From: Pirellulaceae bacterium
Lineage (GTDB): Bacteria; Planctomycetota; Planctomycetia; Pirellulales; Pirellulaceae
Direction: 5' to 3'
Length of the DNA stretch: 64,000 bases
Assembly (NCBI GenBank): GCA_035512595.1
Contig: DATKDU010000207.1
Span: 4,889-68,888 of the forward strand
Part shown: positions 24,104 through 60,015 of the stretch, piece by piece
How positions within the stretch are numbered: the stretch's first letter is position 1
How the letters are laid out: each line of letters opens with the position of its first letter
Made by a program: the position numbers and the translations under genes
The notes under the pieces: model-generated
Seen by the model: the letters and a program-made list of their open reading frames with translations, nothing else
Database searches by the model: none
What the model was told of the DNA's origin: nothing

Positions 24104-25519
24104 CTACCGCTGTCCCCGAATCACCGGCTGGGCTGCTGTCCCCTGGCGGGCCGCCATGCGAGCCTGGCCCGTCGCTTTCGCTTCGGCCAGGATCTGCTGG
24201 ATGAGTGCCGCCGAGGCGCCGTCGATCACGAGCACCTCGCTTTGACCCTGCGGGTTGTCCGCCGATCGCAACACGCAGACCAGTTCCGTCCGCGCGCCGC
24301 CGGCGGGCGGAGTGAGTGGCGACGTGATGCCGGCGGCAAATGGTTGCGGTGGAGCGACGTCGGCATTCGGCGGTGTTTCGAGGGGCGCAGTGGCCACGGC
24401 GGGACTGGACTGAACCAGGCCACGATCCGCCGCCGGCTCTTCGTGCGACACGAGGCGACCCTCACCCCGGCCCTCTCCCAATGGGAGAGGGGGAATAGCG
24501 CGCTGATAGACCGCCTGCAAGTTGAACTTGTCGAGCTGAGAGTGGATTGCCGCCGGGCCGGCATAGATCCCTTCGCCGTCGGCCGGATCGTCGGCATTGC
24601 AGACTCCGATGAGCTGTCCGGCCGCGTTGAACAGGCCGCCGCCGCTGCGACCCTGGGCCGGCCGGCCGCCAACGGTCAGATTGGGCCGGTTGGCGTAGCG
24701 ATTGACCGCGTGAATCTTCGACCGCTCGACGGTTGGATCCTGCCCTTCGCTACAGCCGACCGTGAACACCACGTCCTGCGGCCGCACGATGTCGCTGGGC
24801 GCGGCCACGATTGCCGGCGCGACCTTCACACCCGGCCAGATGGAGAGGAGTGCGATATCGAGGTGTTCGTCGTAGTCGAGCAGCTCCCCGGCCACCGGCG
24901 AGCGAGCCCCCGGTGCAAACAGCTCGACCTCGATCTTCCCTTTGCCGCCGCTGCTCTTGAACAGATGGCCGCAGGTCAGGACGAGCGCTTCGTGCTGCTG
25001 CGATTGCTCGTCGAAGTGGGTGTCGATGATCGTCCCCGTGCCGACGCCCCAGCTCCCTTCCTCTTGCACCTTCAGTCGCACCGTGGCCGCCAGGGCCCGC
25101 TGCTCGGCAGTGGGTGTTTGCGCGGCCGCCTGCGAAGGATCGGGGGATTGCCCGCGAACCAGCGGCGCACTGCCGGCGGTTGCCAGCGACCGTTGATCGA
25201 GTTCGCGGGGCATTTGCCCGCGGGAGATCATCTGCACCAGGTCGTCGTACGTCGTCACGCCCGCGAACCGCTGCACCTCGCGATCGCCGGCAAACAAGAC
25301 GAACGTCGGGTAGGCGACGATGCGGTACTGCCGGGCGAGCTGCGGCTCGCGGGTCACATCGACCTGCCGGATAGGAAATTTTTCGCTGGCCAGCCGCTGC
25401 ACGACCGGCTGCATCGCCCGGCAGGGCTGGCAGCGGGGATCGGTGAACTCGACCAGGGTGACGTCGCTGGCGCCGCCGGACAGCGCAGCGAAAAGCACGA
25501 GACTGTAGCAGCCGCTCAT
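24104..25519 (-). CDS. secreted thioredoxin-domain / trypsin-like serine protease fusion
   Basis: Start at ATG 25519 (signal peptide). CQPC thioredoxin motif, then CGHLF (His), DIALLS (Asp) and GRSGGGLF (Ser). Confidence 0.85.
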   Translation of the reverse strand: MSGCYSLVLFAALSGGASDVTLVEFTDPRCQPCRAMQPVVQRLASEKFPIRQVDVTREPQLARQYRIVAYPTFVLFAGDREVQRFAGVTTYDDLVQMISRGQMPRELDQRSLATAGSAPLVRGQSPDPSQAAAQTPTAEQRALAATVRLKVQEEGSWGVGTGTIIDTHFDEQSQQHEALVLTCGHLFKSSGGKGKIEVELFAPGARSPVAGELLDYDEHLDIALLSIWPGVKVAPAIVAAPSDIVRPQDVVFTVGCSEGQDPTVERSKIHAVNRYANRPNLTVGGRPAQGRSGGGLFNAAGQLIGVCNADDPADGEGIYAGPAAIHSQLDKFNLQAVYQRAIPPLPLGEGRGEGRLVSHEEPAADRGLVQSSPAVATAPLETPPNADVAPPQPFAAGITSPLTPPAGGARTELVCVLRSADNPQGQSEVLVIDGASAALIQQILAEAKATGQARMAARQGTAAQPVIRGQR

Positions 25520-25972
25520 GGCTTCCCTCCTTGGATCGTTCCGCAGGGAAGCCGCGGCAAAGCGGGTCAGCATCCCTGCTGTCGTGGGACTCGCGCCGAG
25601 GCGCGAGCTGCCGCCGGCATCCCATCCTGGGTGCCGACGGCGGGTTAAGAACCGGCGTGGTTGCGGGGTCGCCGGTTCGCGGAAGGAGCAATGTGTGCCA
25701 GCCTGGAGAAAAGGGCAAGAGCAGTTTTTTTACCGATCACCTGTCAGCGAGTGACTGATGATGGACTCGATTCTCAAGACGCGACCAGGTCACGCTAGCA
25801 GCAGGACGGCCGACGTCAGAATCCGCGGACGATGCGAACTTCGCCCCCATCTCGCACGTTTCGTGGTTCTCTTGCCGGCCCGGCGGCAACACTGCGGGTA
25901 CTCCCCGTTGCCCGCCGCGGCTTTCATAATGCGCCATTGTCCGCCGGTTCACATTCACTGCGGAGGCTCACC

Positions 25973-28249: not shown

Positions 28250-29194
28250 TTAGCCCGCTCGTCCACGATCGGAAACAAGCAACGCCAGGGAATTGTTCTG
28301 TGCGGCCAGCGCCAAGAGCGCCAGCTTGTGCGGCGAGCGGTCGTGCGCTTGCACGCGCCGATGCGCAGCAGCGAGCAGCTCCGCACCATTGGCCAGCTCG
28401 ATGCCGTGCGCCCGCAGCCCGAGCAGCGCCCAGGCCCCAGACATCGCGGTGCTGGGCCGAATCAGCGAGCGCTGCAAGTACGCCAGCGACCGCTCTAAGT
28501 AGGTCCCGGCTGCCGGGCGGGACCTTGCGGCGCGGTCACTAACCTGGTCAGGTCCCGCCCGGCAGGCGGGACCTACTTCTCCCGCCAGCGCCAGCATGGC
28601 CAGCCCCGTTGGCTGCACGTGCGGACGCAGCGTCTGGCCAAGGACGACCGTATTGCCGTAATTGCAACCGCCGACAGGGAGCAGCCGGTCCACGAGCAGC
28701 CTGATCGCCTCGCGGACGCGGGCGTGCGTTCCCAAACCGGCACGCTTGAGTGCCAGTACGTTGAGTGCGGTCGGCTCGATCCACGAATGGGTCTTGTCGG
28801 CCCAGCTCCAGGCGACGAGCTGCGTGTCGTGTCCCATCTCCGGCGACCGCGGCATCGCGGTCCCTTTGGCTTCGAGGATCCAGTCCACGGCGCGGCGACG
28901 ATGAGCCGCGTAAGCATTCCGGCTGCTGGCATCGTCCGCCGCTCGCCAGGCCAGAACTGCAAGGCCGGTTGGCCAACCGGGGGACGGCTCACTGTGGCGA
29001 ATGCCGACGGCGCCGTCGCTACCCTGGCAGGAAGCAAGGAAGTCCAGCGCTGGGGCGGCTTGTCTCGCTTTACCGGCGGCAATCAGGGCCAAGGCAGCCA
29101 ATGCGGTTGGCTCCGTAGCCGGCGACTGCGCAGGCGCGTAGCCGATGACCGGCTGCGCGGCGAGACTCGCGAGTGTCGAAGCAAGCCAATCCAT
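28250..29194 (-). CDS. prenyltransferase/squalene-oxidase-repeat (alpha-alpha toroid) protein
   Basis: Repeated ...T(A/G)LA(A/V)LAL......A...L...Q..DG... units. 11 bp upstream of the DUF362 gene. Confidence 0.7.
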   Translation of the reverse strand: MDWLASTLASLAAQPVIGYAPAQSPATEPTALAALALIAAGKARQAAPALDFLASCQGSDGAVGIRHSEPSPGWPTGLAVLAWRAADDASSRNAYAAHRRRAVDWILEAKGTAMPRSPEMGHDTQLVAWSWADKTHSWIEPTALNVLALKRAGLGTHARVREAIRLLVDRLLPVGGCNYGNTVVLGQTLRPHVQPTGLAMLALAGEVGPACRAGPDQVSDRAARSRPAAGTYLERSLAYLQRSLIRPSTAMSGAWALLGLRAHGIELANGAELLAAAHRRVQAHDRSPHKLALLALAAQNNSLALLVSDRGRAG

Positions 29195-29456
29195 GACGCT
29201 CCTAGCCGGAGGCTAACAGCCTCCGGGATCGACCCGGAGTTCCCGGAGGTCATTGACCCCCGGCTAAGAGCATCTATCGGCTCGCCTCAATTCTGGACGG
29301 GTTAAAAACCTGTCCTACGTGCTAAACCTTGGCGGTGGCTGCGACTGAACGATTTCGTCAATTTGTGCCGGCGAGAGTTCGCGAGGACTTGGTGGGGTAG
29401 CGAATCACCAGCGGCAGGATATCGCAGCGAATGCCGAAGTCGGTATCGCGAACCAT

Positions 29457-29497
29457 GTTCAAAGTTCAAAGTTCAAGGTTCCTCAACTTTGAACTTG
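29457..29497. repeat. GTTCAAA-repeat hairpin
   Basis: gttcaaagttcaaagttcaagg ... caactttgaacttgg. agttcaaagtt pairs with aactttgaact. Confidence 0.75.
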
Positions 29498-30089
29498 GAA
29501 GCGGACGTTCGTGCGGCAATCCGCCTCGCGCAGAACGATTGTCAAACCTTGCCGGCCAGTCAAACCGTGCCGCTTCACAATGTAGCGGTGAGGGCGGCGC
29601 TAGCGATCAACGTGGAGGCTGCGGGGGCCATTTTACCGGCAAGGTTTGACCACCTTTCGGCAGCGTCAAAGTCTACGCAACGGTCGCCCTAAAGCGTGGC
29701 AGGAAAATTGTTTGCGAACGTTCAAGGTCGCTGCGCAAGGGGGACGATACCGTACTTGTCAACCGGTTCAAGCAGCCCAGCCGTCGCCGGACGGAGGAGG
29801 CTGGACCGGGCCAAGTCCGGCGGTTTTTCGGGTCAGCGGAAGACCCGACCGGCCTTGGCGGAAGACACACCCCACGTGCGAGCGACACCCACCTACCTGA
29901 AGCTCGCACCGGACCTACCTGGTAACCGCAACCCCGCATGATACCTCCGCCTATCGGACGGGCGGAGGATCTGTCCACCGTGGAAGGGATCGCCACGCTC
30001 TTGTCGCGCGCGGCAAACCGTTCACGCAATCCGGCCGGACCGGGACATGCGCCAGTTCGATGGTTCCATCGTTAAGGAGACGTCGCTCG

Positions 30090-30875
30090 ATGAAATGGAA
30101 CATTCTGGTTGGATCGTTGGTACTAAGCGCTTGCGCTTGTACCCAGAGTTATGGTTTTGAGCTGCTGGACCGCATGCTCGGTGTCAGTGGCTGCGGCTGC
30201 GAAAGCAGTTGCTGCGAATCGAAAGGCTGCCGGTCGCGTTGCGTGCGCGTAAAGTGCTGCAACTCGTCCTGTGGCAATGGCTGTGCGAAAGCCGCGCCGA
30301 GCTGTGCAGCTCCGACGTGTGCCGCCCCAGCCCCCACGTGTGCGGCTCCCGCCCCCACCTGTGCCGCGAAGGCCCCGACCTGCGCCGCTGATCCTAGCTG
30401 CGAAGCGAAGGCCGGCTGCAACAACGGCTGCCGCGACCGCTGCAAGCGTGGTTGCCTGCTCGATCGGCTCTTCTCGTGCAACAAGCGCTGCCACAACGGT
30501 TGCGGCAATGGTTGTGCGAAGGCCGCCCCGAGCTGTGCCGCGAAGGCCCCGACCTGCGCCGCGGCTCCTAGCTGCGGAGCCAAGGCCGCTTGCCACAACG
30601 GCTGCCGTGACCGCTGCCATCGCGGTTGCCTGCTTGATCGGCTCTTCTCGTGCAACAAGCGCTGCAACAACGGTTGCAGCAACGGTTGTGCGAAGGCCGC
30701 TCCGACCTGTGCCGCTCCGGCCCCGGCTTGCGGCTGCGACGCTGCGGCTCCCGGCAAGGCGCACGCCGCTGGTGGGGACATTGCCCCGATGCCGCCGGCC
30801 CCGGTGGTCGATCCCTCGGCCTACCTGTCCGCTCAACGTCGGGTCGTTCCGGCCTCGGCGACCTTGGTCCGCTAA
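30090..30875 (+). CDS. secreted cysteine-rich tandem-repeat protein
   Basis: ATG 30090 (MKWNILVGSLVLSACA signal peptide). About 40 Cys in 261 aa. Two near-identical 58-aa (174-bp) repeats CxNGCRDRCxRGCLLDRLFSCNKRCxNGCxNGCAKAAP(S/T)CAA plus a degenerate first copy. Confidence 0.75.
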   Translation: MKWNILVGSLVLSACACTQSYGFELLDRMLGVSGCGCESSCCESKGCRSRCVRVKCCNSSCGNGCAKAAPSCAAPTCAAPAPTCAAPAPTCAAKAPTCAADPSCEAKAGCNNGCRDRCKRGCLLDRLFSCNKRCHNGCGNGCAKAAPSCAAKAPTCAAAPSCGAKAACHNGCRDRCHRGCLLDRLFSCNKRCNNGCSNGCAKAAPTCAAPAPACGCDAAAPGKAHAAGGDIAPMPPAPVVDPSAYLSAQRRVVPASATLVR

Positions 30876-30909: not shown

Positions 30910-30948
30910 GGCCTGCCACGGTGAAAACCTGGCAGGCCGTTTTTTTTT
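30910..30948 (+). terminator. Rho-independent terminator
   Basis: ggcctgcca-cggtgaaaacc-tggcaggcc followed by a T9 run. Confidence 0.9.
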
Positions 30949-31106
30949 GCGCTGACCTGTCGCCTGAGTCAGGGGTCAGGAGTCAGGGGTCGGGTGTGAT
31001 AACGAATCGGCGCTTTTTCTGCGCCAAAAGACGGCCACTAAGTCATCCTGCAACCGCTTAGAGAAATCACAGGATTTTCTTTAATAAGCTCTTCTGCCTC
31101 CAACGC

Positions 31107-58689: not shown

Positions 58690-60015
58690 CTAGAACCGGC
58701 AGCTCGTCCCGATCGTCAGCCCCTGCACCCAGAAGCTCTCGTCACGGAAGACGAGCGACACGTCATCACCCTGGACAAAGTCGATCATCGCCTCCGGCCG
58801 GGCGACGCTCGACCAGTACATCAGCGAATAGCCGATGTTCATGCTCCAGCAGTCGTTGATGGCATACGACCAGGCCACATCGAGTTCCGGCACCGCTGCG
58901 AACTCGTCGCGGGTGACGGTGGTCGGCTCTGCAACGAGCAGGCCCCCCGGCTGGCCGTTTTCAAATCCAGTCGCCTCGGCCGTCTGCCGCATCGTTCCCA
59001 GCCCGACCTTCACCAGGCAAGTCGTCGTCCAGCAGCCGCGGCATGATTCGTAGAGCAAGCCGATCGAGCCGCCGTGAAATTCGTTGCGGGTCCGCCAGTT
59101 GTCGCTGACGATCAGCGTCCCTTCCTGCGTGTTGGAATCGATCGAAAGCTCCTCGTTGATTCGGGAAAACTGATAACCGCCTACAAAATCGATGCGGAAA
59201 TCGCACATCCGGCACCACCCCAGCCGGGCGTAGGCGTCGGCCCCAAACACTTCCGACGTGCTGACCACGGAGATGCTGCCGTCAAACGGCGTGAACGGAT
59301 CGGAAATAACGAGCGAGTCGGGATTGCCGCTCACATCGACAAACGGCCGCTCGATGGTCTGATTGGGGAGTGAATCGGAATCCGCGGCAAAACGGAGCCG
59401 CTCCTTGCCGATCCCCCAGAACCGGCCGCCCAGGCCGAAGCATTCGTCGGGGCCGAGCCATGTGCCGAAATCAATGCGTGCCCCTCCCTGGGGAGAGCCC
59501 CCTTCGATCTCACCGCCGTACAGGACGATCTCGCCGGACGGCGGAACCTGTTCCGTGCTGCTCGTTACCAGCACCGGCAGATCGCGCCCTTTGCGCCACC
59601 ACAAGAGGCCGTCGGACCGCAGCCACCACATCGGCGGCCGGCACGACATGCAGGCGAAGCAGCCGGGATCCTTGCCGATGTCGCGAAAGCGCAGTCCACC
59701 GCAATCGCCGGCACACTGGCCCCCGCATCCGCCATCGCAGACGCAATTGCCGCAGCCCTCGGCCGGTTCCGCAAAAGCCGCTGATCCTTCCGCATAGTAG
59801 GTCGCCGGCTCCACATCGCCGGGACTGGCGGCCTGGACTGCTTGAGCAGTTCGCACGGATTGCGGCTGCTGCCAGGCAGCCATTCGGGAGCGGAATTCCG
59901 GGTTTTGACCCTGACAGGTGGTTGCTAGCAGTCCTGCGAGGCTGATGGCCAGTGTAGGGGCAAGTAGCGAGTGCCGCGGCATGGTGAGCTTCCGTAAGAA
60001 CGGCGGCTGTCTCAT
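58690..60015 (-). CDS. BBP7-type outer-membrane beta-barrel candidate
   Basis: Signal peptide, Cys/Gly-rich EGCGNCVCDGGCGGQCAGDCGG segment, alternating beta-strand pattern, terminal ...TIGTSCRF. Confidence 0.75.
   Translation of the reverse strand: MRQPPFLRKLTMPRHSLLAPTLAISLAGLLATTCQGQNPEFRSRMAAWQQPQSVRTAQAVQAASPGDVEPATYYAEGSAAFAEPAEGCGNCVCDGGCGGQCAGDCGGLRFRDIGKDPGCFACMSCRPPMWWLRSDGLLWWRKGRDLPVLVTSSTEQVPPSGEIVLYGGEIEGGSPQGGARIDFGTWLGPDECFGLGGRFWGIGKERLRFAADSDSLPNQTIERPFVDVSGNPDSLVISDPFTPFDGSISVVSTSEVFGADAYARLGWCRMCDFRIDFVGGYQFSRINEELSIDSNTQEGTLIVSDNWRTRNEFHGGSIGLLYESCRGCWTTTCLVKVGLGTMRQTAEATGFENGQPGGLLVAEPTTVTRDEFAAVPELDVAWSYAINDCWSMNIGYSLMYWSSVARPEAMIDFVQGDDVSLVFRDESFWVQGLTIGTSCRF

Follow-up and report, generated by a model that had tools for sequence, protein, structure and literature searches.

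The DNA analysed here is a window of 64,000 nucleotides (nt) from the Pirellulaceae bacterium assembly GCA_035512595.1 (contig DATKDU010000207.1, positions 4,889 to 68,888 of the forward strand), by which we mean the whole stretch at its full length. At positions 30090-30875 of the window, on the forward strand, lies an open reading frame (ORF) of 261 amino acids (aa) with 40 cysteines (15.3%), of which 38 belong to the mature part of the translated protein. The spacer in front of this gene spans 29195-30089 (~895 bp), the upstream neighbour being divergent and ending at 29194. An earlier reading of the letters alone, hereafter the original prediction, had described a secreted protein of about 15% cysteine, a description that agrees with these counts and with the Sec-type signal peptide predicted here. 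It had also reported an upstream spacer of 860 bp, which is indeed present, but it had missed the conserved, structured mRNA leader inside it. Within that leader lies R1, a new candidate cis-regulatory RNA that is supported by covariation and tied to this cysteine-rich gene family. As read from its sequence, the locus is a self-contained single-gene unit: a promoter region is followed by a structured 5' leader of ~330 nt, then by the ORF and lastly by a strong terminator. Its parts are the following.

29636-29744, forward strand: conserved upstream block with the A-rich GGAAAATT at 29702-29709 and TTCAAGG at 29721-29727, probably promoter or regulatory DNA.
29745-29750, forward strand: CGATAC, 17 nt after TCAAGG, whose CGATA is the same in all 22 aligned leaders.
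29777-29804, forward strand: predicted hairpin P1, conserved in position, with sequences unrelated between genera (single-sequence folds of 22 leaders).
29799-29866, forward strand: RNA element R1, 224 nt before the ATG, matching its covariance model at 45.8 bits (E 1.4e-9).
29810-29820 paired with 29849-29859, forward strand: stem P2 of R1, with a 5' internal loop between P2 and P3.
29829-29847, forward strand: hairpin P3 of R1, loop AGCGGAA.
29944-29968, forward strand: mid-leader hairpin CCTCCGCC-tatcggacg-GGCGGAGG, from sequence and minimum-energy fold.
30028-30089, forward strand: segment next to the ribosome-binding site, holding the Shine-Dalgarno (SD) sequence AAGGAG, with ~95% identity between genera as against only 64-71% for their proteins.
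30090-30155, forward strand: signal peptide MKWNILVGSLVLSACACTQSYG, with a predicted signal peptidase I site after S-Y-G; conservation reaches at least 90% at S20 and at G22.
30156-30182, forward strand: mature N-terminus FELLDRMLG, in which L25, L26, D27, R28, M29, L30 and G31 are at least 90% conserved (150 sequences).
30183-30782, forward strand: low-complexity core of Cys, Ala, Gly and Pro, containing the 174-bp repeats (30339-30686) and both LLDRLF motifs.
30783-30872, forward strand: Cys-free C-terminal peptide APMPPAPVVDPSAYLSAQRRVVPASATLVR (residues 232-261), ending in a near-invariant Arg.
30910-30948, forward strand: intrinsic terminator, a GC-rich stem of ~11 pairs followed by U9; the 65-nt stretch folded gives -28.6 kcal/mol.

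The evidence for R1 is comparative. Its covariance model was built on P2 and P3 (69 positions, 19 pairs), and in 18 matches to it 79.6% of the cells pair, as against 28-37% when the partners are slid, with P3 paired in 97%; 12 of the 19 pairs vary on both sides, and the covariation score was reached by none of 500 shuffles. A further 32 matches from named genomes behave in the same manner (86.8% of cells paired against 21-42% when slid, P3 98.9%, again none of 500 shuffles). There are 49 G.U pairs, by which the structure can be assigned to the forward, gene-carrying strand. Across the leaders, P3 comprises 6-8 bp with a loop of 5-7 nt. The own genome holds one significant match, and of 41 relatives 28 carry R1, each a single time save for one genome with two; there, no family gene follows the second match, which is probably spurious. 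The distance from the end of R1 to the start codon is 184-247 nt in the 18 genomes where a protein search had located the gene. In 7 more genomes the single-sequence protein search had failed, and the ORF directly after R1 reads as a divergent family member, so that the covariance model itself located the gene in relatives that the protein search had missed. The association of R1 with a family gene holds in all 25 genomes with a checkable site, and among 80 further loci R1 matches 32, always on the forward strand and upstream. No family in Rfam 15 matches: cmscan with the window leader at E up to 1, and with 8 related loci at E up to 0.1, returned chance hits to microRNA and small RNA (sRNA) models only. 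Relatives lacking an R1 match (Rubripirellula, Novipirellula and others) carry, at the corresponding place, a leader of a second type, in which GACCCAGAGGC is followed by a GACAU-NGG-AUGUC hairpin. The conserved folded leader, which the cysteine-rich gene always follows, probably controls translation of that gene.

R1 is one part of a longer conserved leader. The 450 nt upstream of the gene were aligned from 22 genomes representing many family-level taxa of the order, together with alignments of 13-22 genera, and the last ~460 nt of the spacer, from 29636 (CCGGCAAGGTTTGAC) to the start codon, are conserved across the order, with no conservation upstream of 29636 in the cross-genus leader alignments. 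Most leaders (19 of 21) fold more stably than their dinucleotide shuffles, several with z < -4, and single-sequence folds suggest a common layout in which the variable hairpin P1 is joined by P2, arranged around a 5' internal loop of 10-13 nt, and by hairpin P3. The mid-leader hairpin has a compensatory counterpart (CCCGTC/GACGGG) in one relative (G005), in a comparison of few sequences. Nearer the gene, GTTCCA (30063-30068) could pair with TGGAAC (30096-30101, codons 3-4) and so enclose the ribosome-binding site; this stem occurs in 9 of 22 leaders yet is invariant, and was set aside as lacking covariation support. A terminator-like site within the leader (29800-29821) was likewise dismissed as chance, its U-run not being kept in relatives.

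The segment ahead of the folded part, with its A-rich box, TCAAGG and CGATA, displays no covariation and has the appearance of a promoter. CGATAC may be the -10-like element of a promoter of the extracytoplasmic function (ECF) type, or a protein-binding site. A genome scan for TCAAGG-N16-18-CGATA gave 9 matches, about the chance expectation, and thus no evidence of a regulon. The first conserved upstream block is also the right arm of a 15-bp perfect inverted repeat (29541-29555/29636-29650, GTCAAACCTTGCCGG and CCGGCAAGGTTTGAC). Its left arm recurs in the same-genus genome alone (12 bp), with faint traces in two more, which makes the repeat lineage-specific. Elsewhere in the spacer, GTTCAAA repeats with an inverted copy occupy 29457-29500, in its non-conserved part.

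Judged by its substitution pattern, the ORF is a genuine gene under purifying selection in the annotated frame. Aligned with the ortholog from the same genus (80% protein identity), it carries 36, 29 and 72 differences at codon positions 1, 2 and 3; synonymous and non-synonymous codon changes number 48/54 when read in the annotated frame, whereas the two remaining forward frames give 20/87 and 21/85, and every indel is a multiple of three. The annotated frame is taken as real because of these three signals, namely the codon-position bias, the bias towards synonymous change and the indels in threes. The original prediction had noted that alternative frames are open, and the comparison of the three forward frames favours the annotated one. 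An in-frame ATG at 30060 was rejected as the start, since the SD (30074-30079) stands 10 nt 5' of the ATG at 30090 and the homologs share the same MK(W)N beginning.

The repeats, too, were recovered much as the original prediction had described them. Tandem Repeats Finder gives a 174-nt period in 2.1 copies with 90% matches (30349-30715), and a repeat search gives two 174-nt copies at 88% identity (30339-30512 and 30513-30686) along with a third, partial copy of 59 nt (30252-30310, 75-78% identity); the repeat starts proposed earlier, ~30414 and ~30588, describe this array in a shifted phase. There are two LLDRLF motifs, at residues 123-128 (30456-30473) and 181-186 (30630-30647), and the last cysteine is residue 216, leaving a tail of 45 residues that is free of cysteine, again as foreseen. 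The strong terminator that had been seen is the one at 30910-30948. Just past it, at 30968-30991, stands a 7-nt GTCAGGG repeat of 3.4 copies.

Sequence searches of Pfam (at E up to 10), NCBIfam and PDB with the window protein found no relative, in keeping with the original prediction, which could assign no family. A word-indexed protein search returned 273 relatives and an exhaustive search 221 clusters at 50% identity, all unnamed or 'hypothetical', and those with organism names come from Pirellulaceae. By pattern and tblastn searches at one genome per species, at least 479 species-level genomes encode a relative. The best 80 of these 479 genome titles are all labelled Pirellulaceae, Pirellulales or Planctomycetota, and the genera among the listed titles are Rubripirellula, Novipirellula, Anatilimnocola, Aureliella, Aporhodopirellula and Candidatus Laterigemmans. 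When 301 genomes, sampled evenly over the phylum, were searched with a profile, only the own genome and a single member of its family-level taxon matched, the ~299 others giving no match. The own genome has one full-length copy, and every checkable Pirellulales genome has the gene, in one full-length copy. As far as these searches indicate, this is a large undescribed family of Pirellulales-type genomes only, with one copy per genome; it is unnamed and without an assigned domain or a published study. A possible distant paralog lies outside the window, an exported Cys-rich ORF at G000:C169:4184-4732 (minus strand) that begins MKNRPLVAALAAGLVCIASQAFAFERLDRAIL and carries CRDRC/CGRGC clusters and AAPSCAAKAPSC. 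Its N-terminus and core resemble the family, it ends without the PPAPVVDPSAY peptide, and no R1 match was reported on its contig.

Alignments of 36 and 150 members were used to gauge conservation, and the statistics of the core and its flanks come from 125 parsed members. Conservation is confined to three parts, the signal peptide, the mature N-terminus and the C-terminal peptide. Around the cleavage site the family consensus reads ..QS(F/Y)G/F(E/D)LLDRMLG..GCGC (cleavage at the stroke), and residues 1-31 of the window protein, covering the signal peptide and F(E/D)LLDRMLG, align with columns that are at least 90% conserved in 150 homologs. LSAC, at residues 12-15 of the signal peptide, is also compatible with a lipobox; lipidation as a family trait was rejected, the cysteine of the h-region being absent from several members and the residue at -1 being usually Leu. 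At the other end the consensus is (A)PMPPAPVVDPSAY(L)xSxRRV(V/I)xASxxxVR, in short PMPPAPVVDPSAY..RRVV...R or PPAPVVDPSAY..RRVV..R, with P236, P238 and D241 invariant. The final residue is Arg in 121 of the 125 members, and 15-18 residues separate the DPSA motif from the C-terminus in 122, the other 3 having 11. FELLDRMLG and the C-terminal motif are each unique to this gene within its genome, and the C-terminal peptide was rejected as a general sorting tag because the terminal motifs are absent from the genome's other proteins.

The core between these termini varies freely. Mature length ranges over 139-328 residues (239 aa in the window protein) and cysteines number 14-63 per member (7.7-23.7%, median 15.9%), in a core averaging 17.5% Cys, 14.9% Gly, 13.6% Ala and 6.3% Pro with ~1.4% aromatics; one or two LLxRLF-like motifs recur across the family. 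Of the cysteine counts, 68 are even and 57 odd (p=0.37), with no preference for even numbers. Some members have a core rich in Lys, Asp and Gly with only ~8-9% Cys and retain both termini, so that selection appears to act on the termini and not on thiol density. AlphaFold2, run with the 36-sequence alignment, yields a mean predicted local distance difference test (pLDDT) of 52 and a predicted template modelling score (pTM) of 0.20; it is confident only about the signal helix, the helix of the second LLDRLF (residues 181-187) and the C-terminal peptide, the last being the most confident part outside the signal, while the rest of the core falls below a pLDDT of 50. On this modelling, the Cys-rich core looks like a variable, disordered spacer between conserved terminal peptides. 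What the original prediction had missed is that conservation lies in the terminal peptides and not in the cysteine repeats.

As to function, the reading that we favour, tentatively and by analogy, is that of a thiol-cross-linked matrix protein of the envelope or periplasm, the translation of which is gated by the leader, most simply via a CsrA paralog. After export and cleavage of the signal peptide, the two terminal peptides, of which the N-terminal one, F(E/D)LLDRMLG, is amphipathic, would dock the protein to envelope partners. The thiols of the flexible spacer would form promiscuous, mostly intermolecular disulfides and thereby a cross-linked periplasmic or envelope matrix. Synthesis would be gated post-transcriptionally through the leader, and in the simplest case one of eight CsrA paralogs would bind the GGA hairpin and the AAGGAG SD region. 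A structural or tethering role is favoured because the termini, rather than thiol density, appear to be selected and because no metal genes lie nearby. The random parity and variable spacing of the cysteines, for their part, fit both disulfide cross-linking and a metal-thiolate or redox role. An envelope protein and a metal-binding protein had both been proposed by the original prediction, and both are kept as candidates.

The older literature describes cystine- and proline-rich envelopes in the Pirellula group, and the present protein is a concrete candidate for this classical material. In chlamydiae, OmcA (a small lipoprotein) and OmcB stiffen the envelope via intermolecular disulfides with the porin. 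The window protein resembles them in being exported and very cysteine-rich, in belonging to the Planctomycetes-Verrucomicrobia-Chlamydiae (PVC) superphylum and in having a BBP7 porin with a Cys/Gly-rich N-terminal extension in the same window, and it may correspond in function to the disulfide-linked envelope of chlamydiae. However, it has no match to PF03503 or PF03504 (Chlam_OMP3/Chlam_OMP6) in Pfam at E up to 10; it is, as modelled, disordered and of low complexity, it has conserved terminal peptides, lipidation is probably not a trait of its family, and its cross-linking is only proposed. The YTV proteins, known from preparations of planctomycete cell walls (Rhodopirellula baltica, Gemmataceae), are likewise exported and rich in cysteine and proline (PMC8567305). 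The window protein differs in having no YTV tripeptide, no Pfam YTV match, another architecture and a family found only in Pirellulales-type genomes. OmcA/OmcB and the YTV wall proteins are, by analogy, its closest functional counterparts, and neither is homologous. A likeness to the keratin-associated (PF13885) and Stig1 families is compositional: two homologs have a precomputed PF13885 hit and Rubripirellula K227x_06970 carries the UniRef label Stig1, but both families are eukaryotic, and the window protein matches neither, sharing only their low-complexity composition.

Several observations weigh against a cross-linked matrix gated by CsrA. Neither DsbA-type oxidases (PF01323 DSBA, PF13462 Thioredoxin_4) nor VKOR were detected by Pfam in this 92%-complete genome, and the one DsbB-like gene (G000:C492:2783-3712, minus strand) encodes a membrane protein bearing a CPLC motif, so that enzymatic formation of disulfides in this periplasm is at most putative. 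The window protein has no sequence similarity to chlamydial OmcA/OmcB or to the planctomycetal YTV proteins. The neighbourhood gives little functional help, the divergent Cupin_2 gene of about half of the relatives being absent here. Finally, the enrichment of GGA in the leaders is weak once the SD is set apart (z 1.8-2.4). As a gauge of whether the periplasm is oxidising, cysteine parity was also counted genome-wide: exported proteins, delimited by a crude signal-peptide heuristic, have an even count in 57% of cases, against 54% of controls, which leans to neither side.

CsrA enters the argument through the loops of the leader. A structure-based alignment places GGA in all 18 P3 loops, and it is also present in all 11 hairpins of the second leader type, usually as A-N-GGA; the conserved SD AAGGAG contains GGA as well, as any SD would. 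The consensus of CsrA obtained by systematic evolution of ligands by exponential enrichment (SELEX) is RUACARGGAUGU, and the hairpins of the second type resemble it. In Bacillus subtilis, the hag leader is controlled by CsrA through two GGA stem-loops, one of them at the SD. The present leader is similar in its GGA-loop hairpin, its GGA-containing SD and the presence of CsrA genes, and its product is, like that of hag, exported and, as proposed here, an abundant structural protein; it differs in that the hairpin lies ~230 nt from the SD and not ~20, the leader is far longer and more structured, and binding of CsrA is predicted. The own genome encodes 8 proteins of the CsrA family (PF02599), and each of 21 order genomes searched, the own included, has 2-14. 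A 2026 survey describes GGA hairpin loops in 5' leaders as the targets of CsrA and reports the protein to be widespread in Planctomycetota, with up to 15 copies in some genomes (PMC13443453). The CsrA link rests on one conserved hairpin and the SD, because GGA elsewhere is weakly enriched; on the same count, with the SD left out, the idea that the leader acts as a CsrB-like sponge was rejected. We regard CsrA control of the leader as quite possible on these motifs, though short of probable.

The leader could also be read without CsrA. The upstream region might act at the DNA level only, through a promoter and transcription factor sites, or the RNA element might be a riboswitch, a thermosensor or an sRNA target. 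The invariant CGATA, with TCAAGG placed N17 before it, is promoter-like and free of covariation, the enrichment of GGA beyond the hairpin and the SD is weak, and the conserved 5' internal loop is a possible site for a ligand or an sRNA. However, action on DNA alone leaves the compensatory changes in P2 and P3 and the strand-specific G.U pairs unexplained. A simple stem-loop without a multi-helix junction would be unusual for an aptamer, and the invariant feature is a GGA loop, in genomes that are rich in csrA. Overall, these alternatives appear somewhat unlikely.

For the protein, the counterpart of a cross-linked matrix would be a sponge or buffer: a reduced, metallothionein-like polythiol of the periplasm or extracellular space, sequestering Cu(I), Zn or Cd or serving in redox through its CxC, CC, CxxxC and CG(x)E/D motifs. 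Reduced thiols would favour such metal binding. The composition invites the comparison, with 15-20% Cys, almost no aromatics, plentiful C-x-C, CC and C-x3-C and, as in metallothioneins, disorder in the metal-free state; the cysteine count has no even-number bias, and no DsbA-type or VKOR oxidase was detected. Nevertheless, known bacterial metallothioneins are cytosolic and small, whereas this family has a signal peptide, a mature length of 140-330 aa and conserved termini without cysteine, and no metallothionein family matches it. The neighbourhoods in all genomes examined lack metal-resistance and transport genes, members with ~8-9% Cys and a Lys/Asp-rich core keep the terminal peptides, and a DsbB-like protein is present. 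We consider this explanation unlikely.

A more elaborate version of the cross-linked matrix can be drawn by analogy with CsrA-FliW, which couples the translation of flagellin to its export and assembly. The protein would then be a cystine- and proline-rich envelope staple, its N-terminal helix and its C-terminal peptide, with the terminal Arg, docking two different envelope layers or partners, its disordered polythiol spacer zipped by disulfides, and a dedicated CsrA paralog, bound to the R1 hairpin and the SD, coupling translation to export or assembly. This is a long shot; if true, it would mean a new principle of envelope building, order-wide and with its own riboregulator.

A defined disulfide-knot fold, one of the roles offered by the original prediction as a disulfide-knotted structural protein, is unlikely because the number of cysteines varies, their parity is random and AlphaFold2 models the core as disordered. 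Repeated, folded, knotted domains would agree with the two 58-aa units of the window protein and their regular CxxxC spacings, but such units are not kept across the family, in which the number and spacing of the cysteines are free, the model shows no domain, and PDB and Pfam hold no relative, all of which makes this a very improbable architecture. That the ORF is an artefact of GC-rich repeats, with another frame or none expressed, is hardly credible, for while four further frames are open across the region, of the three forward frames compared only the annotated one fits the synonymous pattern, hundreds of genomes keep the signal peptide along with both terminal peptides, and the SD, a dedicated leader and a terminator are in place. 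Returning to the leader, it offers a defined target for probing the role of the many CsrA paralogs of planctomycetes.

The genes around the locus vary between relatives. In the window, a squalene-cyclase-repeat protein and a DUF362 protein are encoded upstream and divergently, and a metallophosphoesterase and a PAS-GGDEF-EAL protein downstream. In 10 of ~21 relatives and at four loci of database homologs (two isolate, two metagenomic), the Cys-rich gene is divergent from a Cupin_2 gene of 120-140 aa, which is 54-68% identical across the order (loci L029, L030, L031 and L034 and the 10 relatives). Three of the four loci have two genes for PQQ/BamB-like beta-propellers of ~690-860 aa after the cupin, with a response regulator beyond in two, and LpxB lies downstream in two. 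No leftover cupin gene is present in the window spacer, and the only cupin match of the genome is on another contig, at 28% identity. The Cupin_2 neighbourhood looks like the ancestral arrangement, lost in the clade of the window, and its envelope flavour lends weak support to an envelope role.

Two further proteins of the window deserve mention. The gene at 58690-60015 (minus strand) encodes a BBP7 beta-barrel porin (PF07585, E 7.6e-71), in which the Cys/Gly cluster noticed by the original prediction does exist: 10 cysteines fall within the first 130 residues, before the barrel, most of them in the Cys/Gly-rich stretch GCGNCVCDGGCGGQCAGDCGG, and of the 6 BBP7 paralogs of the genome this is the only one to have such a cluster. 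The porin could be a disulfide partner of the Cys-rich protein. A few kb from the Cys-rich gene, at 24104-25573 (minus strand), lies a fusion of thioredoxin with a trypsin-like peptidase (489 aa), an unusual exported redox-protease.

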